From Octopus vulgaris (lineage: Eukaryota): a stretch of 64,000 bases of DNA. Both the position numbers and the translations under genes were made by a program. The notes beneath the pieces were generated by a model. It was given only the letters and a program-made list of their open reading frames with translations. It searched no databases and was not told the origin of the DNA. The DNA lies in contig OX597818.1 in NCBI GenBank assembly GCA_951406725.2, forward strand, positions 42,408,001 through 42,472,000, given 5' to 3'. The stretch's first letter is position 1. Each line of letters begins with the position of its first letter. This document shows, one piece after another, positions 1-63,480 of this stretch.

Positions 1-800
1 TGCTAACTTTTTCCTGGTAGTGCATGTTCTTCATCTCTAGACTATCATACAGGAGAGCAATACTAAAAGCATCCTTTTAGCCAAGTACTCCCACCCCCTA
101 CACTTAACCACTACATTCTCAAATTAGTACACTTGGGCAAAGAACAATGCTTTGAACAAAATCTCCCACCTCCGTGAATCAGACCCAGCACTGCAACCCC
201 TACAGGACCCTTAGCTGATGAAGGATTCTTCCATGCATTACATGGCCTGATAGCTCTCTTGCTGTTCATCCTTTAGCATTGAAACTGGCTATATCCAGCC
301 AAAATATTCTATCTGTTCAAACCAGCCTCACACACCTACTTTGCAATGACATTCTCAAAGAATACAATCACATTGAAGGTATGAGGTAATGAATGATTGA
401 GTCAAAATAATGTGAATGAATAAGCAATATATTTGACAATCCTTTTGATTGATCCCTTTGCCAGAGGAATTCCTGCAAGCTTGGAGAATAACTCTTGTGA
501 TCATTGTTTCTGTATGCAGTTACTTGCATGGAAATGGCCTTTTTGCTGCCAACTTAATTGTCCAGCTGAAAAGAAGCTAAATTTCAAACAAATGCACTCC
601 ACACTATCTGTATTCTGTATGTGTAAGTAAGCAAGCATCATTATAAATTTGTGTATGATCATTGCAGTAGTCATATATTGGAGAAATTCTTTTCCTTGGT
701 TTACCTTTTTAAAACTAGCTGGTCTTGTTGAGAAAAATGAAGGTGCATGTTGCCTGTCTAGTTGTTTTGTTAAATGTGGATCCTTTTTTGATTCTGTAAA

Positions 801-935
801 CTGCTATTTTTACTCCATTGTATGTCTTATGGCATATTGTGGCATTGATATATACAATAGCTACATAAAATTACTTCATCTAATCGAACTGCTTGGAATG
901 TTCGTCCTTGTGGTTTCGCAACTGTTGTTACATAT
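801..935 (+). ncRNA. Box H/ACA snoRNA candidate, copy 1 (predicted 28S pseudouridine guide, SNORA52/snR5-type site)
   Basis: Hairpin (GCTATT/AATAGC), H box ACATAA 863-868, second hairpin, ACA 930-932. Pocket TCTAAT (879-884) plus TTCGC (915-919) starts 15 nt before ACA and is complementary to 28S GCGAA-U-G-AUUAGA. Confidence 0.75.
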
Positions 936-1424
936 ATTTTACTTATATTTTCTTGTGGTAATACTGAGTTCCCCAGGTGTGTGACCTCATAGACTTGCAG
1001 CACACTGAATCCTTTCAACACCGACCTTCTTGGGACTGCCTCCAGTTCTATGACATAAATCTGTTTTAATTAGAAAGTTATTTTAATAAAATTCTTCATC
1101 GTCTTAAAAATTAACTAAACAAAAGCTGCTTGTTTTATCAAAAATATGGCAACAAAAGGGTAAGACACCTGTGTGCCCAGTAGTAGTGTAATAAGAGGCA
1201 ATTTGATTCCTTGGTATGTCTTTTTAAAACCAGCTGGTCTTAAAGAAAAGCGGAGAATGTTGTCTGTTCAGTTATTTTGTTTAAATGTCTACTTTGTAAA
1301 ACTGGAGCAGTCTCCTGCAAACATCTTCCACAATTTTCATCTACAAGTCAAATGCATGTGTCCATACTAGAGACCATCACGTACCAGATGGACACATGCA
1401 TTTCTTAAGTATTTATAACTTTGG

Positions 1425-1775
1425 GGATACTTTTTGGTTATCTCACCCCCCATTAAAAATTGGCTTATTTCCCTCCGTTTTACGAGAAACATCGGGGCTT
1501 TTGGTTATCTGCTTCAACTGGAAAAGTTGTTTAACCTTCAATAAAACAAAAAAAAATTAAACATTTTACTGAATCTGATAACTAATCATACTATGCCTAT
1601 TGAGGAGGCCAAACAAAATCAATGTGTTGAAGTACTAAATCAATAGGATCTAACTTTTTTGATCCAATCTGTTGTCGCCACATTAACTCGATTTTTTTTT
1701 TTTTTTTTTTTTTTTTTTAGTGGTGAGATAACCCAGTTTTTTAAAGGGGATTGAGGTAACCAAATTAAGTTGGTG
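1425..1775. mobile_element. Degenerate MITE-like element
   Basis: Imperfect ~50-bp inverted repeats (TTTGGTTATCTCACCCCCCATTAAAAATTGG vs CCAGTTTTTTAAAGGGGATTGAGGTAACCAAA). Confidence 0.35.
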
Positions 1776-1898
1776 ACTTCTGCTTTAACAAGTGATTTTC
1801 CTAAACTTATATAAAACTGGCATGTCTTTGTAGAGTGACAGTACACGTCCACTTTTTCGTGAAATTTTGTATATATATATATATATATATATTATAAT

Positions 1899-2039
1899 CT
1901 GCTATTTTTATTCCACTCTATGTCTTAATCTTATGGCATATTGTGGCATTGGTATATACAATAGCAACATAAAATTACTTCATCTAATCGAACCTCTTGG
2001 AATATTTATCCTAGTGGTTTCGCAACTGTTGTTACATGA
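1899..2039 (+). ncRNA. Box H/ACA snoRNA candidate, copy 2
   Basis: Same hairpin-ACATAA-hairpin-ACA layout and intact TCTAAT/TTCGC pocket. Confidence 0.7.
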
Positions 2040-2294
2040 TTTTACTTTTTCTTTAATCAGATTGGGTTGGTGTATCAATAAATTACTGTTGCTTTGTTAT
2101 TGTTCCTGATTGTGCTTTTTTTCTCTCTCTCTCTCTCTCTCTCTCCTATTTCTCTGTTAAGTTTAATGCTCTCTTCTCTGGGGAAAATGAGTTACGTTGC
2201 TTGTGAATTATATCCAGTGTGCCATTTACAATACTAACATGAATGTATACATGTCTGGTTGCTCATGAAATCTCCTAAATCCCTCTATTATAAA

Positions 2295-2429
2295 TTGCTA
2301 TTTTTACTCCACGGTATGTCTTATGGCATATTGTGGCATTGATGTATACAATAGCAACATAAAATTACTTCATCTAATCGAACCTCTTGGAATATTTATC
2401 CTAGTGGTTTCGCAACTGTTGTTACATGA
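2295..2429 (+). ncRNA. Box H/ACA snoRNA candidate, copy 3
   Basis: As copy 1; ACA at 2424-2426. Confidence 0.7.
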
Positions 2430-2702
2430 TTTTACTTTTTCTTTAATCAGATTGAGTTGGTGTTGGGTTTTTTAAACAACTACATCAATAATTTACTGTT
2501 GCTTTGTCATTGTTCCTGATTTTCTCTCTCTCCTGATTTTCTATTTCTGTGTTTAGTTTAATGCTCCCCTAGTTACGTTGCTTGTGAATTATATCTAGTG
2601 TGCCATTTACAATACTAACATGAATGTATACCTTAAAACTAGCATGTCTTTGTAAAGTGGTGGTACACATGTCTGGTTGCTCATAAATCCCTCTATTATA
2701 AA

Positions 2703-2837
2703 TTGCTATTTTTACTCCATTGTATGTCTTATGGCATATTGTGGCATTGATGTATACAATAGCAACATAAAATTACTTCATCTAATCGAACCTCTTGGAA
2801 TATTTATCCTAGTGGTTTCGCAACCGTTGTTACATGA
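2703..2837 (+). ncRNA. Box H/ACA snoRNA candidate, copy 4
   Basis: As copy 1; ACA at 2832-2834. Confidence 0.7.
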
Positions 2838-3120
2838 TTTTACTTTTTCTTTAATCAGATTGAGTTGGTGTTGGGTTTTTTAAACAACTACATCAATAAA
2901 TTACTGTTGCTTTGTCATTGTTCCTGATTGCGCTTTTTTTTTTCCCCTCTCTCTTTTCTATTTCTCTGTTTAGTTTAATGCTCCCCTTGTTACGTTGCTT
3001 GTGAATTATATCCAGTGTGCCATTTACAATACTAACATGAATGTACACCTTAAAACTAGCATGTCTTTGTAAAGTGGTGGTACACATGTCTGGTTGCTCA
3101 TGAAATCCCTATATTATAAA

Positions 3121-3255
3121 TTGCTATTTTTACTCCATTGTATGTCTTATGGCATATTGTGGCATTGATATATACAATAGCTACATAAAATTACTTCATC
3201 TAATCGAACCACTTGGAATGTTCGTCCTTGTGGTTTCGCAACCGTTGTTACATTT
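3121..3255 (+). ncRNA. Box H/ACA snoRNA candidate, copy 5
   Basis: As copy 1; ACA at 3250-3252. Confidence 0.75.
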
Positions 3256-3600
3256 TATTCGTTTTCTTTAATCACAACACTCTGTTAGTGTTGAGTTTTT
3301 AAAACAATTACATAGATTACAGTTTCTTTATTCATACAATATTGTGCAAGCATTTCTACATACAGGTATGGGGTGTTTTGTCATTGTTCCTGATGGTGTT
3401 ATTGAAAATTTTTCCTTGTTTTTATTTCTGTATTTAGTAAATTGCTTTTCTTCAAATGATACTTTGCTGGGAAAATAGTATATTTCTTAATTTCTCTTCT
3501 CTGTGTGGAAAATAAGTTATGTTGCTTTTGCCTTATATCCAGTGTGCCATTTACAACACTAACATATGGCTGCAAACATCATTTCTCTAATAAACTTAAT

Positions 3601-3751
3601 TCCTGCTGAGCTGATTTTACCCTCTTTCATGTGTTTCTAATTGGATAAAGGTACTCAAAAGCTATACTTGTAGGAAAATCATGCTTAAGAATTATATACA
3701 AATGGGTGATGAACCTCTTCCATTTGGAGAAGTCTACAATTCAACTGTTTT
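3601..3751 (+). ncRNA. Unrelated box H/ACA RNA candidate
   Basis: Hairpin TCCTGC/GTAGGA, H box AAATCA, hairpin CAAATGG/CCATTTG, terminal ACAatt. Confidence 0.5.
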
Positions 3752-3801
3752 CAGTTATATTGACAGCAAAGTTGTTTGAATTATACTTATGGCTCAGTCA
3801 A

Positions 3802-3936
3802 ATGCTATTTCGCCCCACATGGTCTTTTTTAAGATAGTATGTGGATCTTGTTTAAAATAGCTACATTAATTACTTCATATAAATCGAGCTGCTTTTGAAT
3901 TTATTCTTCAGTGGTTCCGAGAATGTCGTGACAAAT
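3802..3936 (+). ncRNA. Diverged paralog of the H/ACA array (copy 6)
   Basis: GCTATTTT/AAAATAGC and CCACAT/ATGTGG stems, H box ACATTA, GAGCTGCT/AGTGGTTC stem, ACA 3931-3933; pocket sequences changed. Confidence 0.65.
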
Positions 3937-4071
3937 AACATTAGGTTTTTTGGGGTTTTTTTTCTTCTTTCATTCTATTATTTTATTCCTTACACTTCAA
4001 CTAAAGTGTCTTCATTTTTTAGGTATTACAAGGTAGCTTAAATTTACTTCATACTTTATAGATATTGTAAT

Positions 4072-4200
4072 AACTGGGCTGATAGTTATGTGCTGTTTCT
4101 TCAACATTAACAGTGCTTCACTCTGGCAGAGAGCAATGCTTTTAAGCAATTCATATATCCCCATAAACTGGATGGGTGGTTGCTACTGAAGATTACAATT
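4072..4200 (+). ncRNA. Unrelated box H/ACA RNA candidate
   Basis: GTGCTGTT/AACAGTGC hairpin, canonical H box AGAGCA 4130-4135, AGCAAT/GTTGCT hairpin, terminal ACAatt. Confidence 0.55.
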
Positions 4201-4414
4201 GTGTGGGACTATCATCACAAAAAATAGCCCTATACCTCTTCTGCCTCACAAAATTGCAGCTGATCCTTTTGGTACCTTGCCAGAGGGATCTCTTCTAATT
4301 TTCAATCATAGTGGTTCTGTAAACAGCACTTGGTTTTTGATTTCACCATTTTGTTGACTGGATGTTGTTCTCAGACCAGGGAAACCAGCTAGGGTGCTTG
4401 CATCAGATTGGTTT

Positions 4415-4632
4415 CTGTTTAAACCGGCTATATCCGGCCCATATATTCTACTCATTTTATGCTCAAATTGGCCGGAACCAGTATCTCACACCTACCTTGC
4501 AATGTCATTCTAAAAATAAACAATTACATCTTTCAAATCTTGAACCTACAAGATAATACCAGATTAATTTTTTTTAAATGTAAATGAATAAAGATTACTA
4601 TTGACATATTAATTTGAACGCTAAAGGGTTAA
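4415..4632. mobile_element. piggyBac-like MITE fragment
   Basis: Ends ...CTAAAGGG|TTAA; related copies at ~270-430 and 54788-54994. Confidence 0.55.
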
Positions 4633-5030
4633 GGCATCCCATGCACTCTCAGGATGAGGAAAAGTCTTCTCAATGAGCTTCAACATTGTTTCTGTCTCTT
4701 AAATTTCACTTACAATGCTTTGGTTGGATTGAACCTATAGTAGGAGGCTCTTATGCATGGAACTATGTTCTAAGGTTAACCTGAAATTACATGGCCAGTG
4801 AGTCTGCCATCCCGGATGATCATCTAGTGAATGGGAAAACATTGAGTTACATATTGCATTTGTAGGCATTTATGATGAGCTCTTTTACAACTGTGTGTGT
4901 AGTTTCATTGAGATTTGATTATTTCTAGCTGGTTAGACTCCCTCATTGGCTTGTCCATATAAAGTTTATTTAATTGTAGAGAGAAATAGTGGCACGTTTT
5001 ATGTTAAATTTTTCTGGACCCTTCTCTATA

Positions 5031-5173
5031 AACTATTTTCACTTCATAGTATGTTTTAATCTTATGGCCAATTATGACATTGATGTAGAGAATAGTGACA
5101 TAAAACTGCTTCATCTACTCAAAACTACTGGAGGTTTCACAAATGGTTTTGGGTTGGCCAGTTCACTATATTT
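5031..5173 (+). ncRNA. Diverged paralog of the H/ACA array (copy 7, possibly decaying)
   Basis: Compensatory stems ACTATTTTC/GAGAATAGT and TCATAGT/ATTATGA, H box ACATAA, second stem CAAAACT/GGTTTTG, terminal box ATA rather than ACA. Confidence 0.5.
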
Positions 5174-14194: not shown

Positions 14195-15739
14195 TTTACA
14201 GCAGGGTTACCATTCCTAACATAAACCAGGAACATTTTTCTAAATTAGGTGAGTTTAAACAAGTAGAATAATTACAGCATAATACAATGCCTGGAACAGG
14301 ATTTCGTCTCACAACTCATTTAATCTACCTCAGAATTTCAAAAATGGCACTGGTTGCTGGCTGAGAAATCTCTGCTTACATTTAAATAAATTAGAAAATA
14401 ATTCCTTAGCAGCCAGATGTCAGTGACTATATAGTTATTTTTAGGATCATAATTGAAGAATTTAATCAATTCAATCAAACAGGTAAGTTTTTTGGCGAAA
14501 ACAAACTGCCAACCAAAGTAACAAAAAAAGTGGGGATGGGGGGGGAATTGTTATACCGTTGCACACCCGCAAACAAACACATATCAAAATTACAATATTC
14601 AGCAGGTTAGACACATAATTCTTTACTTTAATAAGTTTTTGTCTCATATATATATCTTCATGTCATATTTTGAGGTTAGAAACATTGCATGTTATATTAA
14701 TAGTATTTCCAAATACTATTATAATAATAGTATTTTCCAAATACTATATAATAATAGTATTTTCATCACAAAAATATCTTCAGAGTTGATCATTGCCGAT
14801 GTTTTTCAATTCGGTGACTAAATTTCCGTGAAAAACCAAACATCTCGAGGTATCAACACGAAAAAGCCATTCTGATTATATACTTAGCTAATGATAAACG
14901 GAGACCATCTGAATACCATATAAAGTAAATTTAAACCAATTACACACATCATTAAAGATTGTTTTGCTGGTTCAATAATTGTAAAAAATTCTGTGTTGTG
15001 CAAGTTTTACAACAAATAGTGCCCGGTAGCTTAAACATTGAGAAAAAAATTGAAACCATGCAAGGTAATGAATATGTTCAACTAGTTGGATATATTATAA
15101 AGTGCTGCGCAATTTTGAGGTACCAAACTATAAATACACTGTTCGTCTATCTTCAAAAACAAATTTTAGTCACCTTAACAATTGAGAAAAAAAATTATTT
15201 CTTATCTTGACATCAACTACTATTTCGAAGTAGAATTCTGCAATGACTGTTCAGTAATAATTATAAAATACAAGAAATGTTTCGCATATAAGAAAAACAA
15301 TAAATAATGAAAGACAAAACTTTGAGTAACTTTGCGAATGCCCAAAAATAATCAGTTTTATGCTAGAATGTTCTTAAGAAATGAGTTGTGCTTAATTAGC
15401 AACAAAGGTTAACTTTGGTTTCATTAGAAGCAATATTTAGCTTTCAGATGGTGTCGGAGATAACACTAGATTGATAATGCAAGTCCACCTTAGAAATTGA
15501 TAACAGTGGACAAGTAAATTATTAAGGTCTTGGGGAAAAGCGGTGGGTGTTGAATGTTCAAGCTAATAATTAATAAAATAAAGATTTTCTTTATAGAAAA
15601 TATCAACAGTGAATATAACAGATTAACAACTATTACTACTGCCTATAAAATTAAATGATGCTTTAACAAGAATCCCATGAAACAGTAAATTTTAAAAAAT
15701 ATAGATTTCAATTTTAATTGAATGTAGCTATAAGGTAGT

Positions 15740-15779
<40 letters not shown>

Positions 15780-16283
15780 AAGTTAGGTACTTGTCAATTG
15801 TCGTGGTCCCGGTTTTGCACACGCGAATTCGCGCGCGCGCGCGCGCCAGACGTAGGTACTCGATACTCGAGATCCTACGAGGTGACTTGCGCATGCGCAG
15901 TGCAGAATTCGCGCGTGCGCGTTAACCCCCCCCCCCTAAAAAAAAAGGTGTTGGATTTCACTAAAAATATATGTGTGTGTGTGTGTGTGTATATATAACA
16001 TTTTCAATTTTACACAAAAAAATTACATAGTCGCTTTCCTCGCGGATTTACAGAGAAATGAATTAATTACTATTTTACAGAATAAAATTAATGAATTAAT
16101 TATATAAATTAAATAATTCTTGAAAATTAATTAATATTAATAATATTTTTTGAACAAAGTAAATAATTTATAAAACTTGGTTAATCATTTTTTTTACACA
16201 AACGCGAACGTATATAATTTGTGAAACTTTTTTTTTTTTACAGACGTATATAATTTGGTAAACTTAATGAATTAATTTCTTCT

Positions 16284-16704
16284 CATCATCATCATCGTTT
16301 AACGTCCGTTCTCCATGCCAGCATGGGTTGGACGGTTCGACCGGGATCTGGGAAGCCAGAAGGCTGCACCAGACTCCAGTCTTATCTGGCAATGTTTCTA
16401 CAGCTGGATGCCCTTCCTAACGCCAACCACTCCGAGAGTGTAGTGGGTGCTTTTTACATGCCACCCGCACAGGTGCCAGGCGAGGCTGGCAACGGCCACG
16501 GTCGGATTGGTGCCAGTCGAGGCGGCTCTGGCATCGGCCACGATTCGGATAGTGCTTTTTACGTACCACCAGTCCAGGGTCCTGGCATTTGCCGGGTGCC
16601 ACACTTGCCCCAACATGTCTTCGCAAGCAAAGGGGGTTGGCATGGGTGCCTGTCGTGGGATGAGGTTCGATATCAACTTCGCTTGCCTCAACAGGTCTTT
16701 GTGT
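16284..16704 (-). mobile_element. RTE-associated (ATG)n-tailed retroelement fragment in left arm
   Basis: (CAT)n-CGTTTAACGTCCG...GCATGGGTTGGACGG family; mirrored at 17817-18240. Confidence 0.85.
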
Positions 16705-17150
16705 ATAAATGTATAAATTTTTCGCACTAAATTCTTTCCGTAGAATTTATAAAAAAACGCGCAAAATTATTCCGTAGACTTTATCAAATTAAAAAACGCA
16801 AAATTAATATATTTTTTGAAATTGCAAATTATTTAGAATATAAAACAAATTAAGTTAAATTTTAAAAATAAATGTCATATACTTATACTCTGTAAGGTGC
16901 TGTGTTCACACTTCAATTTACTATTTTCTAGAAATGTTGCTTTTCTAATTGAAACAATTTTTCTCAATCTCCATTTAAAAGTCCATAATGCCTCTTGAGC
17001 CATATCAAAATGAACAACTTTGAATTACCCGGTGGTGGTGGTGTGAGGTTCTAATTTTTTTTCTGATCTCTCTTTGCCCCCCCTAGATGGAGGTGTGGTG
17101 GGGAGACAGATGAAAGATGTTTCATTCTCTACTATATATGTATATATATA

Positions 17151-17187
<37 letters not shown>

Positions 17188-17816
17188 CTTAAACCTACAC
17201 GATATAGTCTATAAATTTGGGATGTTTTTGAAAGATAATATATTTTGTCATCAGAATATATATACTTTCTCACACTACAATTAAGATATATTTATTTTAA
17301 ATCGTTCATCTTTTCCCGCGACAACAAAAATTGGGCGCGAAAATTTTTCTAAATATTAGCTGAATGAACAACTGAGATAAAGAGGGGGCAAAGAGAGATC
17401 AGAAAAAAAATTAGAACCTCACACCACCATCACCACCACCGGGTAATTCAAAGTTGTTCATTTTGATATGGCTCAAGAGGCATTATGGACTTTTAAATGG
17501 AGATTGAGAAAAATTGTTTCAATTAGAAAAGCAACATTTCTAGAAAATAGTAAATTGAAGTGTGAACACAGCACCTTACAGAGTATAAGTATATGACATT
17601 TATTTTTAAAATTTAACTTAAGCACCTTACAGAGTATAAGTATATGACATTTATTTTTAAAATTTAACTTAATTTGTTTTATATTCTAAATAATTTGCAA
17701 TTTCAAAAAATATATTAATTTTGCGTTTTTTAATTTGATAAAGTCTACGGAATAATTTTGCGCGTTTTTTTATAAATTCTACGGAAAGAATTTAGTGCGA
17801 AAAATTTATACATTTA

Positions 17817-18240
17817 TACACAAAGACCTGTTGAGGCAAGCGAAGTTGATATCGAACCTCATCCCACGACAGGCACCCATGCCAACCCCCTTTGCTTGCG
17901 AAGACATGTTGGGGCAAGTGTGGCACCCGGCAAATGCCAGGACCCCTGGACTGGTAGTACGTAAAAAGCACTATCCGAATCGTGGCCGATGCCAGAGCCG
18001 CCTCGACTGGCACCAATCCGACCGTGGCCGTTGCCAGCCTCGCCTGGCACCTGTGCGGGTGGCATGTAAAAAGCACCCACTACACTCTCGGAGTGGTTGG
18101 CGTTAGGAAGGGCATCCAGCTGTAGAAACATTGCCAGATAAGACTGGAGTCTGGTGCAGCCTTCTGGCTTCCCAGATCCCCGGTCGAACCGTCCAACCCA
18201 TGCTGGCATGGAGAACGGACGTTAAACGATGATGATGATG
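17817..18240 (+). mobile_element. Mirror copy of the retroelement fragment in right arm
   Basis: Reverse complement of 16284-16704 with ~2 differences. Confidence 0.85.
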
Positions 18241-18525
18241 AGAAGAAATTAATTCATTAAGTTTACCAAATTATATACGTCTGTAAAAAAAAAAAGTTTC
18301 ACAAATTATATACGTTCGCGTTTGTGTAAAAAAAATGATTAACCAAGTTTTATAAATTATTTACTTTGTTCAAAAAATATTATTAATATTAATTAATTTT
18401 CAAGAATTATTTAATTTATATAATTAATTCATTAATTTTATTCTGTAAAATAGTAATTAATTCATTTCTCTGTAAATCCGCGAGGAAAGCGACTATGTAA
18501 TTTTTTTGTGTAAAATTGAAAATGT

Positions 18526-18564
<39 letters not shown>

Positions 18565-19249
18565 TTTTAGTGAAATCCAACACCTTTTTTTTTAGGGGGG
18601 GGTTTAACGCGCACGCGCGAATTCTGCACTGCGCATGCGCAAGTCACCTCGTAGGATCTCGAGTATCGAGTACCTACGTCTGGCGCGCGCGCGCGCGCGA
18701 ATTCGCGTGTGCAAAACCGGGACCACGACAATTGACAAGTACCTTGAAGTTATATCTATTAAAAAAAAATTGAAAAATCTAAGCATATTTTTTTTTTAAA
18801 AAGTGTATTAAGATTACATTTACATAGTCATTCATTGTCTTTCCAGAGACAGATTGCCGACGTGTTTAAAAAGATGACAATTTACAAAACATTTCAAAGT
18901 TGTTTTATGTCAAGTTCTTTTGGTTTTATTTTATTACCTAATGACAGTAAAATAGATTTTTTTTTCCTTAAAATTAAACCAATTTTAAATTAAAAAAAAA
19001 AAAAAAAGAGGGAGAGGGGCCAGGGATTTTATTTATAAATAACAAAAAAACATTAATCAAGGAACTTCCTAAATTTTGTGATCATGTAATTCGATCACAA
19101 TTTGTTAACTCAATTTTATATATTTACACCAAACTAAAAACTGCAAAACAAAACCATGTGCAAAAATGACAAATGACAGATGATTTTTCAAAGTCCTGAA
19201 ATATCTTATGATCTTAATATTTATACCTTCTATTGCAAATATAAACATT

Positions 19250-21106
19250 TTACATAATGCAGCAACTCGGTGTCTTTTTTAATTTTTTAGTAAGAGGAGA
19301 ACTTTCTTCATTACCTGAAATTTGAATATTTGTTTCATGTGGATCTGAATTTGGAAGTGATTCACTATGTGAAGAGGCACGAGGTAAAGATGAACCCTTA
19401 TTAACATATTCTATTGCCTCTTCGGCTAGTTCCAAACCTTCTTCAATAACATCAACGAAACTTTTACAAGGACTGCTAGGTTCAACCACAGAGATAGAAC
19501 TCATTTCTGCAACAACCAGTGGTTCTATAACAGTTACTATTTCTGCAGGACAAGTTGATTCGGTATCTAATTGTGACTGAGATCCTATAACAGAATGGGA
19601 CGAATCGGGCCTCAGAGTTGAAGATGATGACATGTTCATTTCATCCGCATAGTTTACTGCCTCATCGGAAGTTGAATTAATTTTCTCTGATATATCAGTG
19701 GCTTTTTCAAATTCATTGTCAGGTGAAGGTTTTGAGGTTGAACCCAACTCCATTTGATTTTCACTAACCGATTCTGGAGCAGCGTTGCTATTTTTAGTTC
19801 CATTTTTAGAACTAGTACCAAAATTTATTTCATGCTCTATGTGGTAATAACCAGAGATGCCTTTTCGTTTTAACATTGAGCAGAGTTGTATACTACCTAC
19901 AGGCTGGCAGCCAAAATAGCTTTCGATAAATTCCTCATAAACGTCAGGATAAATCTTTTTCAATCCTGTCTTTTTAGTTAATTTTTTACCAACCCTCGAT
20001 AACTTCATCACAGTAACATGAGGCTTGAAATCTGATTGTTTTCCAACTAACCCTTCTGCAAAGAACTGCGCTTGAATTTCTTCAGCAATTTCTTCCAACT
20101 TTGCAACATGGTCTCCTGGCTGGACTTTAGCAAAAACTACTGAATTTCTAAAGTTTCCTAGACCTTGTAAAGGAAGCTTTAACAACTCCTTTTCATATTT
20201 TGGTGTCAGTTTAACTCCAGACCGATCTAATGCTGCTCTAGCCCGGTCTATATCGTCGTCTCCCCCTAAATGCATCACTGCAAGCGTCATGTGAAGACTA
20301 TGAAGCGGTACAACTGCCAAGGAATAATTTCCATTTTTTTTCATAACAGATTTCTGTACATCTTTTAAATTTGTATTAATTTCTGTATCAGAAAACTGGA
20401 TTGAAATAAAATAATTTGGAATTGGTTTGGACGACTTTTTATTTTGCTTTTTCGTTCGTGTTTCTTCGTCACTAAACACGGTTAAAATCGAATTATCATC
20501 ACTTAAATCATTAAAAGTTACTGTTGCACTTTCTTCATCGATAACTGTCTGTTTCGTAACACTGTCATTGCACTCCGAAGATGTCAAGACTTCACCCTCA
20601 GGAACAACCGTTATGTTTTCTGCCTCTTGTTTATCAATAAAAGTTTTAGGGCTAAAAGTTGGAGAAACAGTTTCGTCTACGAGAAAAGTTGTATTAGTTA
20701 ATTGATTTTCCTCTTCAGTATAAGAGTTATCGTTGAAATTACAAGGACTCTTTACAATGTCAGCCTGAGGGACTATTCCACCACGAATTTTTTCTGTCAC
20801 TGAGTCTAATAAAGATTTAGGAAGAATGCGCGACTTAAGTTTTGACTTTGTGTCTTGTATTGATTCGGGAGGAGAAATATCAGCTTTCGGAGGAGGGTCA
20901 GAATCACTTGCTGACATTTCTGAAGACAGTGACGGAGACATAGTAAGGCATTCATCACGGGAAGAAGGATTGTTCGTTGAAGAAGTATCTGTATCGCTAT
21001 AACCCCAGTCCATGTTTAGTGTAAGCTGCGACAACTTCAACGGTGGCTGCAGAGCGCCTATGACACCATGAAAGTTAATAAACAACTTCGACACAGAGCG
21101 AGACAT
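19250..21106 (-). CDS. AKAP7: AKAP7 (gamma/delta)-like 2H phosphoesterase, single coding exon; likely start at Met32 (21013)
   Basis: 618-aa ORF; PNYFISI start of domain, two HxT motifs (SLHMTL, FKPHVTVMKL), FGCQ..IQLCSM..GYY; AAACATGG context at 21013; C-terminus KKLKKTPSCCIM. Confidence 0.85.
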   Translation of the reverse strand: MSRSVSKLFINFHGVIGALQPPLKLSQLTLNMDWGYSDTDTSSTNNPSSRDECLTMSPSLSSEMSASDSDPPPKADISPPESIQDTKSKLKSRILPKSLLDSVTEKIRGGIVPQADIVKSPCNFNDNSYTEEENQLTNTTFLVDETVSPTFSPKTFIDKQEAENITVVPEGEVLTSSECNDSVTKQTVIDEESATVTFNDLSDDNSILTVFSDEETRTKKQNKKSSKPIPNYFISIQFSDTEINTNLKDVQKSVMKKNGNYSLAVVPLHSLHMTLAVMHLGGDDDIDRARAALDRSGVKLTPKYEKELLKLPLQGLGNFRNSVVFAKVQPGDHVAKLEEIAEEIQAQFFAEGLVGKQSDFKPHVTVMKLSRVGKKLTKKTGLKKIYPDVYEEFIESYFGCQPVGSIQLCSMLKRKGISGYYHIEHEINFGTSSKNGTKNSNAAPESVSENQMELGSTSKPSPDNEFEKATDISEKINSTSDEAVNYADEMNMSSSSTLRPDSSHSVIGSQSQLDTESTCPAEIVTVIEPLVVAEMSSISVVEPSSPCKSFVDVIEEGLELAEEAIEYVNKGSSLPRASSHSESLPNSDPHETNIQISGNEESSPLTKKLKKTPSCCIM

Positions 21107-21120
21107 TCGAAATCAGACAA

Positions 21121-21133
21121 GTGCGCATGCGTG
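21121..21133. promoter_or_regulatory. NRF1-like motif upstream of the AKAP7-like ORF
   Basis: GTGCGCATGCGTG. Confidence 0.4.
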
Positions 21134-21939
21134 AAAATATGGTTTGGTGGCTCATTAGAATGTACGGTGTATGCTCGGTGCTTGTCACTATAATTAGGTT
21201 TCAAACTTAATTAATCTTTTAACGTTTTATCTCATTTACTTTTTGTCATATCAACAATGGGTGAAGGCTGGAATTATGTACTCGTCACGCTGATCAAACT
21301 AGGCGATGATTTTACTTTAAAAATAAGCAATAATTTACTTTTAAGTTTAATTAAACTTAAATGTTGAAGAGAATCGAACGGCTTTTGTGTGTTTCTTAAA
21401 TGGCTTACAAACACCTTCCACACTGCAATTGTTTTCGTTTCAGCACACGATCTCAGATCAAATCACTTGCTATGCAAGTACATCTCCGTAATAATTTACT
21501 TATTTTCACTCAAACCAAACTAGGCAAAACAGATCGGGGCAATCTATCGGTGTCTCTCTTCCATACCCGAAATTCTTTCAGCATAACTTCATGAAAATTT
21601 TAAATTTTCCATTTAATTTTGCAGAGAAACATTTCGAAGATGTCGATTACGACTGTGTTAGTAACATTTAAAAAAAAAATGATTATTTCAAATAATTTTC
21701 CACCCGCTCTCGATTCTGTTTCCTCATAACTCTCTTTAAAATGCATATTTTAAAATATTTTGCCGATAATTTTTTGAGTGAATTTCGAATCGTTCTTCCT
21801 CCTCCCACCTTGATTTTGATATCACTAATTCCCGTAACTTGTGTATTGTTCACTCGTGTTTTGTTTATTTATTTATTTCCGTTATATCTTTTGTCTTGTT
21901 TCTGTCATTGGAATGTGGTATCAAGCGCTGCTGGACACA

Positions 21940-21984
<45 letters not shown>

Positions 21985-21986
<2 letters not shown>

Positions 21987-22493
21987 TACTATTTAAGAAG
22001 AGTGGTCCCGGTGCGCACACTCGCGCTTCCTCGCTAGCTAGTCGTGACTAGTCGCTCCTTACTTTGTGTTTTTGTTTTTACTTTGTTTAAAAAATTATTG
22101 CGCCTTGGATACCAATTCCTGGATTTTTACACCTACGGATTACTGTTACCATCCTTCCGGAGTACGCCACTGAAATCGTGATTGGATATATATATATATA
22201 TATATATCCATACGGGATCTTTTCGGACCTAGAAATTATGTTACAAACTGCCGTTCAAACCGAAAAGATCCCGTATGGATATATATATATATATATACTA
22301 TTTAAAAAGAGTGGTCCCGGTGCGCGCACTCGCGCTAGCTAGTCGTGACTAGTCGATCCTACAACGACTACCTAGCAAAGTAAATAAAACACAATTTTTA
22401 AACAAAGTAAAAAGAAAAACACAAAGTAAGGATCGACTAGTCACGACTAGCTAGCGAGTGCGCGCACCGGGACCACTCTTCTTAAATAGTACC
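21985..22493. mobile_element. MITE related to the foldback element, inserted in (TA)n
   Basis: ~110-bp TIRs GGTACTATTTAAGAAGAGTGGTCCCGGT...; extra internal TIR copy at ~22296-22345; internal 26-bp inverted repeat 22201-22285. Confidence 0.85.
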
Positions 22494-22529
22494 ATATATA
22501 TATATATATATATATGCGTGTGTCCATGC

Positions 22530-42800: not shown

Positions 42801-45444
42801 AACCACTCCGTGAGTGTAGTGGGTGCTTTTTACGTGCCACCGGCATGGGGGCCAGGCGAGGCTGGCAATGGCCACAATCAGATGGTGCTTTTTATGTGCC
42901 ACCGGCACGAGGCCAGTTGGGGCGGCTCTGGCAACGGCCACGGGGCGGCTCAGGCAAGGCTGGCAATGGCCACAATCGGATGGTTCTCTTACGTACCACC
43001 GGCACTGGTATCAGCTGCAATTTCCATTGATGTTGATCGATTTCGATTTTCACTTGCCTCAACAGGTCTTCACAAGTAGAGTTTTGTGTCTCAAGAAAGA
43101 AAGGTATGCATAAGTGGACTGGCTACATCCCATTTAGAGGCCACGGGTTATGGTCTCACTTGTCCTGCCGGGTCTTCTCACACACAGCATACTTCCAAAG
43201 GTCTCGGTCTCTAGTCATTTCCTCAGTGAGACCTAAAGTTCGAAGGTCATGCTTCACCACCTCATCTCAGGAAGCAGCCCTAAAACAGTTCACCTTTTCC
43301 TGTCCTGTGGTTTAACGAATGTAGTTGTCATGAGGACGGCATTAAGCAAATAGACTGTGTGTGTCTGTATGGGGCTGATGAAACACATTAACTGTCATGT
43401 GTTAACTGTAGAATATATTTTGAATCTAATTCAAGACAATTTTTTTTTTTTTTTCTTTTTCTCAAAAGGAACGCATTCTTCCACAATGTGATGATTTCTT
43501 ATATATGTGTGACAATGCTTATTCAATGGAGAAACTATTTGATATGGAGAAGAAAATTTTTGTCGCTGTGGACTTTCGATTGGGTATCCCGCTCTCTTAT
43601 CGATTTCTTCGGCGCTATTGTAAGGTAAGTTACTGCTAGATGTTTTCTTTTGTCTGTCCTACCATTCGATTTTATCATATTTTCTTATTTTTGTAAATTT
43701 TTAATGTCCTCTTTTTTTGTATAATCATTCGCTCATCTGACCCCAAAATCAGATTGTATTGTCCCTTCTTTGTTGGCCCCTTGTGGGTAATAAAAATCAA
43801 AGTTACTGCTAGATGTTTTCTTTTATAATTTCCTCTTTTTTTTCTCTCCCGTCTTCTCATATGTGATCTATTAAACATTGTAGGTTGCTAATTTTGAAAC
43901 CAAAACGCTGACACTAGCTCGTTACATACTTGAATTATCACTTCTGGACTACAATTTTGCTTGTGACAAAGAGTCTTTGAAGGCAGCTGGTTGTTTGTGG
44001 TTGGCATTAAAGATGGAGGCTCTTGAGTGGGTAAGTTACCATATATCTTTTTCAAGATTTATTTTGTTTGTTTATTTTTTTGGACTACATAATTTTTTAA
44101 AAATTTCATCTAAATTGCAGAATGCTATGCTAACTCATCACTCTGGTTATTCTGAAGAAGAAGCAAAGAAAATGGCTAAGAAGCTTAATTATATGTTGTT
44201 ACATCCTTCATTCAATGCAGTCAATGAAGTTTATAATAAATATTCAAATCAGTAAGTTTCTTTTTTTTTTTTTCTTTTTGTAACTGAGTGGAAGAGATAT
44301 TTACTTTGTACACAATCTTGTTTAAAGGGAGTGTCTATTCTAATATTTAAAACTGATTTTCTTCATTTAACTTAATAATTTTATATCCACTTTTCCATGC
44401 TGACATTGATCAGTTGGATCTTAACATAATGTCATTTGATTTGCAATGGCAACACAGAAAACCAGTCAACTTAGTGACTGGCACACAAGAATGTTTGTGG
44501 TTAGATCATTCTTTCTACTCAATCTTTTCTTATTCAGTGTACTGTCTTCCTGGATAGGTAGCTTGCAATGCAGTTTTCCAAGTCCATATCCTGTTTGTAC
44601 AATTTGTTTTTGGCATAGTTTCTATGGCTACATGCCTTTCCCTAATTTCTTATTTCTTTATTGCCCACAAGGGGCTAAACGTAGAGGGGACAAAGGACAG
44701 ACAAATGGATTAAGTCGATTACATTGACCCTAGTGCGTAACTGGTACTTAACTTATCAACCCCGAAAGGTTAAAGGCAAAGCCGACCTCGACGGAATTTG
44801 AACTCAGAACGTAGCAGCAGACGAAATACCAGTAAGCATTTCGCCTGGCGTGCTAACGTTTCTGCCACCTCATTGCCTTTCTCTAATTTCTGGCAAATCA
44901 AGACCTCATTTCAGTCTTTCCAATGTTTCACACCTACTCTATGATGTGGGGTAGTCATGTAACTCCTCTAGCAAGACACTTGTGTTTGTTCCTCTATCAT
45001 ACTTTATCCTTGCAACATCTGCATTGCTCTATCAAATTTTTACCCCCCCTTCTCTCAAATACAGTTGAGGGACATTTTCCTTCTCTTTTCCCACTACACT
45101 CACAGAGTGGTTGGCGTTAGGAAGGGCATCCAGCCGTAGAAACATTGCCAGATCAGACTGAGGCTTTAGTAGAAGACAGCTGCCCAATGGGGCTGAACCC
45201 GGAACCATGTGGTTGGGGAGCAAGCTTCTTACTGCACAAGCATGCCTGTGTCTATGGAAGATACTTTATGATTGGAAAATTAAAAAAAATTTGTGTGCAA
45301 TATTTTTAGGATTTGTGTGTTTGTAGTGTTTTATATATGTATATATATATATATTGTTTTATTATATATATTATATTTTTATTTTCCAGAGTTTTCATGG
45401 AAGTAGCAGAAATTCCTAAATTGTCAATGGCACAACTAGATTAA
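27892..45444 (+). CDS. CCNB3: G2/mitotic-specific cyclin B3, 10 coding exons (~420 aa)
   Basis: Exons 27892-27975, 28602-28712, 28813-29015, 34454-34499, 37703-37798, 41684-41917, 43469-43624, 43884-44030, 44121-44251, 45390-45444. All GT-AG and in phase (1263 nt). D-box RRAVFGDITN; cyclin box MRSILMDWLVEVQTSFELHHETLYLAVKLVD; LGIPLSYRFLRRY typical of B3. Confidence 0.93.
28602..28712 (+). CDS. CCNB3: Cyclin B3 exon 2 (destruction box)
   Basis: IHCAADNLGPLKRTRSKTEVTQGPDQKRRAVFGDITN. Confidence 0.9.
29130..29308. mobile_element. hAT (Charlie-like) MITE
   Basis: TIRs CAGTGCTTTTCAA / TTGAAAACCACTG; 8-bp TSD ATCTAGAT (29122-29129, 29309-29316). Confidence 0.9.
30053..30431 (-). mobile_element. 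tRNA-derived SINE family B, full length
   Basis: Minus strand begins GGCGCAGGAGTGGCTGTGTGGTAAG with B box GGTTCAGTCCC. Confidence 0.88.
30969..31199 (+). mobile_element. SINE family A, full length
   Basis: GGCGGCGAGCTGGCAG...GTTCAAATTCC...AAAGAAATA. Confidence 0.88.
31280..31654 (-). mobile_element. Non-autonomous Helitron
   Basis: On minus strand: 5'-TC, 3'-CTAG, subterminal GC-rich hairpin, A|T insertion site, no TSD; sister copy at 37985. Confidence 0.8.
33216..34045. mobile_element. RTE LINE relic plus inverted (ATG)n-tailed fragment
   Basis: ORF 33424-33723 GRLYEACIQTAILHDSETW...LREKLGI typical of RTE C-terminus. Confidence 0.75.
34935..35250 (+). mobile_element. RTE-associated (ATG)n-tailed element
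   Basis: GGAAGGGCATCCAGC...CCAACCCATGCTAGCATGG...GACGTTAAAC family. Confidence 0.8.
35996..36367 (+). mobile_element. tRNA-derived SINE family C with TSD
   Basis: GGAGGCGCAATGGCCCAGTGGTTAGG head; 14-bp TSD TATGGGACTTGTTT (35982-35995, 36368-36381). Confidence 0.9.
36478..36706 (-). mobile_element. SINE family A
   Basis: Consensus match; flanked by repeated CTTTGGTATGGTTTCT. Confidence 0.85.
37137..37367 (+). mobile_element. SINE family A, young, with TSD
   Basis: 16-bp TSD GGTATTTGCTGCTAAT. Confidence 0.9.
37985..38363 (+). mobile_element. Non-autonomous Helitron
   Basis: A|TCTTTATATATAAAAG...GCAACGCCGGGCGATACTGCTAG|T. Confidence 0.8.
38521..38877 (-). mobile_element. SINE family B
   Basis: Consensus match. 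Confidence 0.85.
39090..40230 (-). mobile_element. Decayed mariner transposon
   Basis: Minus strand LLQQNNATPH (mariner LLHDNARPH motif) at ~39913-39942. Confidence 0.55.
39274..39568. repeat. Higher-order minisatellite (36/45/45-bp units, 126-bp period)
   Basis: GCTTGC unit starts at 39274, 39310, 39355, 39400, 39436, 39481, 39526, 39562. Confidence 0.9.
40235..40674. mobile_element. Solo LTR (Gypsy-like)
   Basis: TGTA...TACA termini, 4-bp TSD ATAT (40231-40234, 40675-40678), GC-richer than flanks, internal AATAAA. Confidence 0.75.
41043..41396 (+). mobile_element. SINE family B
   Basis: Consensus match. Confidence 0.85.
41684..41917 (+). CDS. CCNB3: Cyclin B3 exon 6 (cyclin box)
   Basis: CNYAVPDYMSSKQNDITSEMRSILMDWLVEVQ...MFIACKYD. 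Confidence 0.95.
42227..42438. mobile_element. piggyBac-like MITE
   Basis: TTAA|CCCTTTTGATACC...GGTAACGAAAGCG|TTAA. Confidence 0.8.
42661..43270 (-). mobile_element. 3' end of RTE LINE (ORF tail, repeat-containing UTR, (ATG)n)
   Basis: Minus strand encodes DEVVKHDLRTLGLTEEM; (CAT)n at left end. Confidence 0.85.
43652..43799 (+). mobile_element. 5'-truncated retroposon 3' fragment with 25-bp TSD
   Basis: TSD AAGTTACTGCTAGATGTTTTCTTTT at 43627-43651 and 43800-43824; ends GCCCCTTGTGGGTAATAAA like SINE family A. Confidence 0.8.
44651..44878 (-). mobile_element. SINE family A
   Basis: Consensus match. Confidence 0.85.
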
Positions 45445-58386: not shown

Positions 58387-58740
58387 CATCATCATCATCA
58401 TCATCATCGTTTAACGTCCGTTCTCCATGCTAGCATGGGTTGGACGGTTCGACCGGGGATCTGGGCAGCCAGAAGGCTGCACCAGGCTCCAGTCTTATCT
58501 GGCAATGTTTCTACAGATGGATGCCCTTCCTAACGCCAACCACTCCGTGAGTGTAGTGGGTGCTTTTTACGTGCCACCTGCACAGGTGCCAGGCGAGGCT
58601 GGCAACTTCCACGGTCGGATTGGTGTATTTTACGTGCCACCGGCACGGAGGCCAGTCGAGGCGGAGCTGGCATCGGCCACGAGTCAGATAGTGCTTTTTA
58701 TGTACTACCAGACCAGGGATCCTGGCTGGTTCAATTCGAT
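58387..58740 (-). mobile_element. RTE-associated (ATG)n-tailed element, same subfamily as the one in the foldback arms
   Basis: Shared CCAGTCTTATCTGGCAATG diagnostic. Confidence 0.85.
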
Positions 58741-60649: not shown

Positions 60650-61050
60650 AGCCATTTCATCATTTAAATCTTACTATCTCCATTTCACCTTTGAAAGACT
60701 CATTGAAGTGACTGATAAAGAAAATGGTCCTATGATTCAGGAATTTGGGAAGAGTTTCAACATTTTTGATGGAATAAAATTGATAAAGAAAGCATGGGAT
60801 AAAATTGCCATAAAGAACATGAAAGGAATTTGGGAAAATCTTTGCCCCAAATTAATTGACAATTCTGAAGGATTTGATAATCTTCATGAAGGAATTCAAA
60901 AAGTAACTGACACGATCATAAACATTGCAAAGGAACTGAACTTTGAAATTTCACCTTAAGATGTTAAAGAAGGTCTTTTATGCTGACAATGATGAAATCA
61001 CAAATGAAGAATTGCTAGAAATGGAAAAGTTTGAATGTGAAGAAGAAGAA
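60650..61050 (+). mobile_element. Tigger/pogo transposase relic
   Basis: QEFGKSFNIFDGIKLIKKAWDKI..KNMKGIWENLCP resembles the Tigger DDE C-terminus, followed by an acidic tail. Confidence 0.7.
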
Positions 61051-61637: not shown

Positions 61638-61644
61638 ACCATGT

Positions 61645-63480
61645 TGTGGTGTGTTGGGGGTGTGTGCATGTGTTTCATTCTAGTTTCCTATTCAGGCTAG
61701 GTTTATCTTCTATCATGTGTGTAGCTTCTGTAATTTGTCTAAGCGTTGCGTCTGTTCTATGTGTGGACAAGATTTCAACTTTTATGTTGTTGAACTAACC
61801 CTGATAGCTGCCCCCTCATCAGGATGAGGGGGCAGCCATCGGGGTTAGTATCACCGGTGATGTGGCCAACTTTTTCATGGTATGGTGGGACAGTAGGCTT
61901 AAAAAATGCCTGACACAGAACTCCATACTCATGAACATGTACTCTCGCTATGTCGATGATATCAACATAGTGGTAAAGGCTCCCCCACAAGAGAGTACTT
62001 TTGAAATAGAAATAGAAACTAATACTATGGAGAGCACCCAGCAAATAGCTAACTCCATCCACCAGAGTATTAAGGTCACGATAGACTACCCTACGAAACA
62101 CCCACTATAGACTACCACTACTAGATACAGAACTCTGGCTGGAAGATGTGAATAATAAAACCCAGATCCTTCATTCACACTATGCCAAACCTATGACCTC
62201 CAAATACCTGATCTTCCGGAACTCAGCTATCGCAGACAATTCCAAATTCAGTATATTGATGGCAGACCTCATCAGAGTAATGAGAAATGTGTCTCGCATG
62301 TGTGACCCTACAGAGTTAAAGAGACACATACAACATTTCGTTCACCGCATGCAGTTCTCAGGATACAGCCATAAAGAAAAGGCCAGAGTATACAAAGGAG
62401 CCATGAAGAAATTTGAAAATATCATACGTAACAATAGGAATGGGATTTTCCCACTCTATAGGAGCGTATCATGGAACACCATTGAAAGGACTTAGAAGAA
62501 AATAGGGAAGACCAACTCATGGTATGATAGCCACAAATATCAAAGTGTCATGTTCGTCGACACCACCCCTAGAGGCAAACTGGCGTACTGCTTTAGAAGG
62601 GCCCTAGACAAACTTAAGCGAAGAATTAAGGTTGTTGAAAGGCCAGGCAACCCTATCAAATCCCTAATCAGTAGAACCTACCCTTTTAGTAGAACCCCCT
62701 GTACTGTATATAGATTTAATCCACAAACAAACTGTAAAGCCAGGAATGTAGTCTATAGTATAAGATGTACAGAGGGATGGTGTAGTAACATGACAATGAC
62801 GTATGTAGGAGAAACAGCACGGAGCATAGGAGAGGGGGTAAATGAGCATTGGAGGGAACTTAAGGAAGAGAACTCATCGGTTCTGTACCAGCATGCTGAG
62901 CAGGAACACGGGGGTTCGCTCAACAACATAGAAGTTAAAATCTTGTCCACACATAGAACAGATGCAACACTTAGATAAATTACAGAAGCTATACTCATAA
63001 TAGAAGATAAACCTAGCCTGAATAGGAAACTAGAACGAAACACTAGCACACACACCCAATATACCACAAACTATGACAGAATAAGATCCCCATAAACTGA
63101 TAACAATATGAATATAATATAATACAATACACAGATAAATAAAAGGAATTAAATAACTATATACATTAACAAAATAAATTAAATTAAATACAAAAAAAAC
63201 AGAAAAAATAAAGAAAGGAAAAAATAAGTAGATATAAATAAATGAACAAAATAAATAAAAACAAACTAAACGAACATGTATAAACAGGAGAAATGATAAT
63301 ACAGGCACATTCCCACACACACGCACACTTACAAAACATAGACATACAAAAAAGAAAGAAGAAAGCAAAGGACCACTGATGAGGTCACAGATGTGTGACG
63401 AAAGAACTCTGGCCAAAATACAATTAATATAAAATAAAGTTGAAGCAAGTGAACACCAAATATAGAGTGCATACATTTTC
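61645..63480 (+). mobile_element. 5'-truncated Penelope-like retroelement (Naiad-type features) with inverted 3' copy at its 5' end
   Basis: RT: TGDVANFFMVWWD, RYVDD, YAKPM, RMQFSGY. GIY-YIG: VVYSIRC...C...YVGET...H...HAEQEH. Stops and frameshifts present. 61645-61793 is an inverted copy of ~62920-63068. Confidence 0.9.
63370..63414 (+). ncRNA. Minimal type I hammerhead ribozyme in the Penelope 3' region
   Basis: GGACCA-CTGATGA-G-GTCACA gatg TGTGAC-GAAA-G aa CTC^TGGCC. Confidence 0.8.

Follow-up and report, generated by a model that had tools for sequence, protein, structure and literature searches.

A LINE 3′UTR fragment mirrored in both long terminal inverted repeats of a foldback DNA transposon in Octopus vulgaris

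A 2958-bp non-autonomous DNA transposon from Octopus vulgaris was shown to carry the same truncated LINE 3′UTR fragment at mirror positions in both of its long terminal inverted repeats (arms). We put at roughly 0.6 the probability that a LINE inserted once into one arm of an ancestral copy, that this arm templated the other, and that the composite was then amplified by transposition in trans. The element lies in a 64,000-bp stretch of assembly GCA_951406725.2 (contig OX597818.1, positions 42,408,001–42,472,000), referred to as the window, and all coordinates are those of the window.

Part of region 17190–19300 was present in 20 of 24 listed sequencing runs, with no declared RNA run among these 20. 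Contigs from four of the 24 runs (X1, X2, X4, and X5) were aligned to 17190–21200, which represents the right arm, the right flank and the gene behind it. X1, X2, and X4 are DNA runs and X5 is RNA by guess only; X1 may be related to the source of the window and is not independent of it.

Structure of the Carrier Element

The element and its parts were located as follows (TSD, target site duplication):

15786–18743, no strand: whole non-autonomous foldback DNA transposon, 2958 bp, with GGTAC..GTACC termini (GGTAC..GTGGTCCCGG) and without a transposase ORF
15777–15785, no strand: left TSD, 9 bp, adjoining an (AT)16 run
18744–18752, no strand: right TSD, 9 bp
15786–17084, plus strand: left arm, a long terminal inverted repeat, delimited by arm alignment
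17381–18743, minus strand: right arm, a long terminal inverted repeat, delimited by arm alignment
17085–17380, no strand: non-palindromic spacer, 296 bp, holding a (TA)26 run at 17133–17185
16208–16265, plus strand: subrepeat with a 36-bp period, flanking the LINE fragment on its outer side and with a mirror counterpart in the right arm
16736–16806, plus strand: tandem subrepeat of 34 bp, flanking the LINE fragment on its inner side and with its mirror at 17716–17786
17570–17671, no strand: 51-bp tandem duplication, right arm only, derived
21985–22493, no strand: smaller relative of 509 bp that shares the terminal motif, lying in a TA run a short way upstream of an AKAP7-like gene

When the two flanks were compared over lengths of 4–12 bp, 9 bp was the sole match for GG..CC ends, and from the base composition such a match is expected by chance with a probability of about 1e-5. 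That the terminus is CC was indicated by an X5 contig from another copy of the family, whose loose end behind 18743 starts with A. An alternative reading with a 7-bp TSD and AGG..CCT ends was contradicted by this loose end and by the 509-bp relative. This relative also contains a third, GG-less end at 22296–22360 and a small TA-flanked hairpin (22189–22226/22260–22297); outside it, 21932–21964 and 22494–22526 form a perfect 33-nt inverted repeat with 11 non-TA bases that resembles an outer mirror shell.

The two arm ORFs scanned (115–158 aa) contained no Pfam family, and no autonomous partner with the same ends was found within the 64-kb window. An Rfam search of 15700–18800 gave no match above threshold; a sub-threshold mir-297 match lay on a (CA)n run and was rejected. 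In metagenome contigs, the exact 27-nt terminus gave no match. A degenerate form of the terminus gave 120 loci that were regarded as chance (BLAST similarity to the element, 0/120; both orientations, 0/120; median GC content, 65%).

With 1.3-kb arms and a 9-bp TSD, internal subrepeats, no transposase, dispersed copies and an apparently empty site, the element shows the features of a foldback TIR transposon. The TSD, the apparently empty site elsewhere and the high copy number of the family (see below) support that 15786–18743 is a real TIR (cut-and-paste) DNA transposon of the non-autonomous foldback type. An earlier reading of the sequence alone (the sequence-only reading) had proposed that a DNA transposon here carries a retroelement in its TIRs, and this proposal is borne out.

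The LINE Fragment in Both Arms

The two inserted fragments and the copies most useful for comparison were:

16284–16699, minus strand: 5′-truncated LINE 3′UTR fragment, left-arm copy, with a (GAT)4 tail, a 26-bp deletion after 16511 and no flanking TSD seen
17823–18240, plus strand: mirror copy in the right arm, with the mirror of the 26-bp deletion at ~18011
58387–58726, minus strand: free LINE 3′UTR copy, closest in the window, keeping the 26-bp segment
42660–43266, minus strand: longer LINE remnant, with an ORF end followed by the 3′UTR from which the insert derives

The fragment is GC-rich and approximately 417 bp in length. As the sequence-only reading had it, the same fragment sits at the same position with the same breakpoints in both arms, and the junctions were identical on alignment. 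The "about 2 sites" at which the two copies had been said to differ were resolved into a single substitution over 415 columns plus two gaps of 1 bp in G-runs. Compared to the free copy at 58.4 kb, the arm fragments showed 17/303 and 16/305 differences (Fisher p = 1.2e-4 for arm–free copy versus arm–arm difference), and each of the seven other copies in the window differed from the fragment at 9/230 positions or more. Four sites (16319, 16373, 16435, and 16458) have a state that is common to both arms and is found in none of the 6–7 window copies covering them.

The internal deletion noticed earlier was likewise confirmed: 26 bp are missing in both arms and kept in the 58.4-kb copy, and since the 42.6-, 59.6-, and 50.0-kb copies also have matching sequence there, the gap is a deletion in the arms. 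The free copy, previously given as 58387–58740, does belong to the same LINE 3′UTR; however, its match is limited to ~300 bp at the 3′ end of the insert, which extends ~113 bp further in the 5′ direction.

The insert starts at a position corresponding to 85 nt after the ORF stop in the 42.6–43.3-kb copy. Over 32 residues, the ORF remnant at 42.6 kb shares 72% identity with another ORF end, at 60.0–60.3 kb, which is followed by the same repeat. Because it lies downstream of an ORF stop in longer copies and ends in a (GAT)n tail, the fragment is identified as a 5′-truncated LINE 3′UTR; the position behind an ORF end, the 5′ truncation and the short tandem-repeat tail are all as expected of a LINE 3′ fragment. 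No TSD was found around it.

The sequence-only reading had called the fragment an RTE tail. Its LINE-type 3′UTR was confirmed, but the RTE clade was not: the ORF remnants gave no Pfam family and no homolog at E ≤ 0.001 among 26 candidates, their Atlas matches were to unnamed clusters only, no match was found in 8 of the 12 supplement files of PMC9115989, and no RT domain linked to the LINE copies was present in the window. Microsatellites are described as common in RTE (PMC9115989). The (GAT)4 tail is a microsatellite-like 3′ end of this kind, a trait that is not RTE-specific. The C-terminus of the LINE ORF may resemble those of RTE elements, and together with the tail this makes an RTE origin plausible.

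Comparison of the Two Arms

Alignment of 15786–17081 with the reverse complement of 17384–18743 showed 1291 matches, 2 substitutions in 1293 aligned bases and seven gap events. The substitutions lie at 15928/18603, on the edge of a C-run, and at 16567/17956, where the base at 17956 is private to the right arm, making this arm the odd one. The gaps comprise 2 bp in a C-run, 8 bp in a TG-repeat, 1 bp in a T-run, a single G in G-runs (two events), an indel of 6 bp and the 51-bp duplication, and five of the seven are homopolymer or microsatellite slips. The likeness spans the entire length of the arms and is not confined to patches. Region 16284–18240, first recognized as mirrored, is indeed so, but the mirror extends much further and covers 15786–18743.

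A joint from 17569 to 17621, skipping the 51-bp unit, was found in contigs of two of the four runs (X2 and X4), and the duplicated form was present in none of the listed contigs of the four runs. From these joints, arms without the duplication are common in the family and the duplication is derived, in agreement with its earlier description as a later event restricted to the right arm.

The Family in Sequencing Runs

In X1, X2, and X4, the arm bins reached hundreds of times the depth of the gene. An inner-arm contig of X2 (17451–17562, no differences) had a depth of 2847.6, which is 2.00 times the summed depth (1424.3) of the two contigs at the spacer/arm boundary. The spacer/right-arm boundary was present in X2 without any difference. 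This ratio of depths suggests that two arms per spacer is a trait of the family and not an assembly fault. With a gene contig depth of 16.5 in X2, the values correspond to roughly 86 elements and 173 arms, figures to be read as orders of magnitude since depth is no copy number. The family is estimated at roughly 100 copies or more.

The insertion site itself is apparently empty in two of the four runs, as judged from the alignment start alone. In X2, a 4184-bp contig (record 16) aligned only from 18744, the first base of the TSD, and was preceded by 1551 other letters; in X5, a 226-bp contig (record 31) aligned only from the same base, after 17 other letters. The insertion at 15786–18743 is apparently recent and polymorphic. 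X4 was uninformative on site occupancy; its record 24 was considered as an empty site but dropped, because it runs on the minus strand and merely stops near 18797. X1 contains the right junction on a contig as deep as the gene, 27 nt of which belong to the element, below the 31-nt bar.

Several bases that are rare in the family were found to be common to the two arms. Within the LINE piece, another base made up 95–100% of the depth at 17865 and 95–99% at 18205 in all four runs, both arms having the rare state. Outside the LINE piece, both arms have T at 17771, where G accounted for 100% of the depth in X2, X4, and X5 and 90% in X1, and both have T at 18353, where A made up 53–100% of the depth depending on the run. 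The mirroring thus reaches beyond the LINE piece. Among the 28 substitution rows listed in the right arm (the table has 83 further rows), the arms agreed in 26, differed in one (17956), and one fell in the 6-bp indel. Agreement of the arms follows from arm identity alone; it is the shared rare states at 17865, 18205, 17771, and 18353 that are evidence for copying.

One X5 contig (record 27) spans the arm/LINE junction and reaches 27 nt into the LINE; it has one difference, consistent with G at 17771. Since the site at 15786–18743 reads empty in X5, LINE-bearing arms are likely to be present at other loci. Because this contig joins the LINE to an arm consistent with G, the T at 17771 likely arose after LINE entry and would have been mirrored later. 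In X1, the residual at 17771 (~69-fold, summed over overlapping contigs) may mark a T-bearing sub-lineage. A residual at 17865 in X2 (~111-fold) was considered as 2 × 56 arms, and this was rejected as a residual of similar size is found at the arm-private site 17956.

Expressed as arm equivalents per ~86 elements, X2 contained ~90–92 long arms at 18284 and 18683, ~135 at 17771 and ~32 that skip 17765–18305. These depths fit both "mostly two" and "mostly one" LINE-bearing arm per element, contigs being unable to phase the arms. No clean pre-insertion arm was found among the listed joints of the four runs (166 further joints were hidden, and joints are undercounted in X1, X2, and X4). The only LINE-less arms listed, from X2 and X4, have a joint from 17764 to 18306. 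This 541-bp skip (17765–18305) exceeds the fragment at either end, taking an additional 58 bp on the inner and 65 bp on the outer side. The short arms form a subfamily at ~30–40-fold gene depth in X2 and X4, which lacks the LINE piece and appears to have a second skip (18335 to 18659, 323 bp, replaced by 18 other letters) at a depth equal to that of the first (529 in X2). A variant spacer/arm boundary was detected at similar depth in the same two runs. The 541-bp skip extends beyond the fragment, removes part of the arm subrepeats and is paired with the 323-bp skip, all of which favors a deletion over an ancestral empty arm.

Origin of the Mirrored Arms

The two fragments share their ends, their internal deletion and rare bases. 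In the sequence of events that we favor, a single retrotransposition would have placed the LINE fragment in one of the two arms of an ancestral copy. During repair of a break, or of the gap left by an excision, DNA synthesis would then have switched template across the 296-bp spacer and overwritten the opposite arm, so that the LINE fragment and point changes close to it were copied as well. The 9-bp TSD, the apparently empty site in two of the four runs and the many copies are partial evidence that the composite moves as a single unit, presumably by means of a Merlin- or Mutator-type transposase encoded elsewhere. Since then, the arms have diverged by two substitutions, repeat-length slips and the 51-bp duplication.

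The copying of the arms probably took place in an ancestral copy and predates the insertion at 15786–18743, because the whole 2958-bp unit arrived by transposition and the arm/LINE junction is also found in X5, where the site reads as empty. Using a rate at which a Jukes–Cantor distance of 0.09 corresponds to 25 My, as implied by the accessible part of PMC13282606, the two substitutions place the last equalization of the arms near 0.2 My ago (0.03–0.8 My). At the same rate, the fragment would have parted from the closest free LINE copy of the window near 8 My ago, which is an upper bound on the insertion.

The sequence-only reading had one arm templated from the other by snap-back replication or conversion. 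A single insertion that was later mirrored is upheld by the junctions, the deletion and the rare bases, but a template in the element's own arm and one in the arm of a sister copy are indistinguishable here. Copying of the second arm from a sister element, in which opposite arms of two copies undergo ectopic conversion or crossover and the product later transposes, is in our view rather unlikely. Such a model has been proposed for TIR extension and chimeras in Galileo (PMC3573991, as far as available), and a numerous and homogeneous family would offer plenty of donors. However, the T at 17771 is absent from the depth in three of the four runs, which leaves few donors, the element's own arm is only 296 bp away, and the arms match over their whole length and not in patches. 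Somewhat less probable still is that the transposon captured host DNA already holding the LINE fragment, in the manner of a Pack-MULE, and that the enlarged arm was then mirrored, which would alter only the first step. The lack of a TSD around the fragment fits such a capture, as does the fact that the only listed LINE-less arms also lack, within their 541-bp skip, 58 bp on the inner and 65 bp on the outer side of the fragment. Both of these extra flanks, however, contain units of the arm's own 34–36-bp subrepeats, and the short arms, appearing to carry the 323-bp skip at equal depth, look like deletion derivatives.

An assembly artifact, in which a fold-back or chimeric read doubled one arm, would also give arms more than 99% alike, and the whole element is spanned by no listed contig; the contig comparison starts at 17190 and leaves the left junction outside, and the X1 junction contig falls short of the 31-nt bar. 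This explanation is nevertheless very improbable, given the 9-bp TSD at both ends, the 51-bp duplication and 6-bp indel by which the arms differ, the intact spacer/right-arm boundary in X2 and the 2.00-fold depth of the inner arm over the boundary. Two LINEs inserting independently at mirror positions would have found identical targets in identical arms, but they would have had to share the 5′ truncation, the tail length, the 26-bp deletion and the rare bases; with 1/415 differences between the arms against at least 9/230 to each of the seven window copies, this can practically be dismissed.

Relation to Known Elements

The closest parallel was found in Galileo, a member of the P superfamily in Drosophila willistoni and D. 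mojavensis, whose non-autonomous copies likewise consist of two long TIRs (PMC4168063; PMC3573991). Fragments of transposable elements occur in both Galileo TIRs; in the authors' interpretation, they entered a single TIR and were passed on to the second (PMC4168063). Besides, independent Galileo insertions share a composite TIR, tandem-repeat changes are one-sided and conversion was proposed as the cause (PMC4168063; PMC3573991), and a repair model has been put forward for the copying of TIRs (PMC3573991). In the accessible text of PMC4168063, the transferred passengers are pieces of DNA transposons (P, Mar, and 1360), whereas the passenger in the octopus element is a LINE 3′UTR. Galileo has TSDs of 7–8 bp (PMC4168063; PMC3573991), in contrast to 9 bp with GG ends here, a length outside the 7–8 bp of Galileo and P elements. 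In addition, the octopus family, unlike Galileo, apparently has 100 or more copies and is polymorphic at this site. The octopus element thus works like Galileo but is not a Galileo. The spread of transposable element pieces from one TIR to both is already published for Galileo (as given in the available part of PMC4168063); the passenger here is a retroelement, and the element is no new kind.

As for classification, Merlin and Mutator are the two candidate superfamilies. The Foldback-type Mutator elements Tm1 (PMC3169594) and MuTAnT (PMC4486113) share with the octopus element a 9-bp TSD, long modular TIRs with subrepeats and non-coding copies, and MuTAnT has G-run termini and favors TA microsatellites (PMC4486113), in which the octopus element and its small relative appear alike. 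At 1.3 kb, the octopus arms are longer, and they resemble each other far more closely than do the TIR pairs of Tm1, which average 93% (PMC3169594), and no mirrored retroelement is mentioned in the accessible parts of the Tm1 and MuTAnT descriptions (PMC3169594; PMC4486113). The 9-bp TSD lies within the 8–10 bp of Mutator/MULE (Foldback) elements and the arms are long and modular, with no transposase linking the octopus family to Mutator. The 509-bp relative has an even-length TSD in its TA run, which fits 8 or 10 bp.

Merlin elements, as described in the available part of PMC8101967, have terminal 5′-GG-3′, an 8- or 9-bp TSD and internal tandem repeats, as found here, but their TIRs are 24–462 bp in length, compared to ~1300 bp in the octopus element. 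A DDE_Tnp_IS1595 transposase is absent from the element. TIR length is regarded as a weak criterion for classification (PMC3573991), and Repbase files non-autonomous elements by their termini and TSD against known members (PMC4455052). The GG ends and 9-bp TSD fit Merlin; the modular arms, the TSD and the TA runs fit Foldback Mutator. The accessible supplement of PMC13282606 annotates 18 Merlin and 55 Mutator families in O. vulgaris, and this family may already be catalogued in the curated repeat library of that study.

Conversion from TIR to TIR has been shown in a bacterial insertion sequence (PMC3004938). The arms also resemble Y-chromosome palindromes, in which derived changes are fixed in both arms and the median conversion tract (542 bp) is on the scale of the insert (PMC13252187). 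These palindromes are large and fixed chromosomal structures, whereas the octopus element is mobile and 3 kb long, and its arms can first be renewed and then multiplied through transposition. In the literature searched, which covered the field in part and was without Repbase and most subscription papers, no description was found of the octopus family or of a LINE or SINE mirrored in both TIRs.

Neighboring Gene and Other Features of the Window

An ORF on the minus strand (19250–21112) encodes an AKAP7 2′-5′ ligase-like domain and falls into one 90% cluster with Octopus sinensis XP_029636507.2. The predicted AKAP7-like 2′-5′ phosphoesterase-domain protein is encoded by one uninterrupted frame of 618 codons, with long acidic low-complexity flanks, and the gene is possibly a retrocopy or a single large exon. 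The element lies ~0.5 kb behind its stop codon (18744–19250). Contigs of X5 cover 19022–21160 and 18744–18952, and the insertion site may be in or near the AKAP7-like 3′UTR.

Elsewhere in the window, inverted arms of 158 nt (90% identity) at 61644–63069 surround broken ORFs (61808–62978), two of which were without a Pfam match and which look like a Penelope-type RT with a GIY-YIG end. An inverted pair of ~380 nt (30053–30432/56050–56444) showed 92–93% identity over a distance of 25.6 kb. A repeat of ~408 bp is both dispersed and tandem at 778–5132, with 2.4 tandem copies at 2272–3274 and partial copies at 778, 1882, and 5033. A cyclin C-terminal domain exon was detected at 43884–44255 (Pfam E 1.5e-14), and a weak remnant of a DDE_1 (pogo-like) transposase at 60651–60959 (E 0.001, below the cut-off).

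Implications

A more far-reaching reading is that arm renewal is a routine part of the transposition cycle of this family, the arms being rebuilt much as retrotransposons renew their LTRs, and that an active element plants inverted LINE pairs. We regard this as speculative and unlikely. If arm renewal were routine, any insertion or mutation in one arm would be either doubled or erased, and the LINE would have been mirrored first and the T at 17771 later. The inverted LINE pairs would then form a 1.3-kb hairpin if transcribed, here ~0.5 kb behind the AKAP7-like gene. With read-through of this gene in carriers of the insertion, the transcript would hold such a hairpin; octopus is known for heavy RNA editing.

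The element represents a clean and young example of TIR homogenization with a 417-bp marker. As the family is numerous and apparently polymorphic, the rate and the template of arm rewriting should be measurable, whereas the studies on Galileo drew their inferences from three copies. A retroelement piece spread by a DNA transposon would inflate counts of LINEs and SINEs and would mislead the dating of insertions and automatic repeat annotation in octopus.
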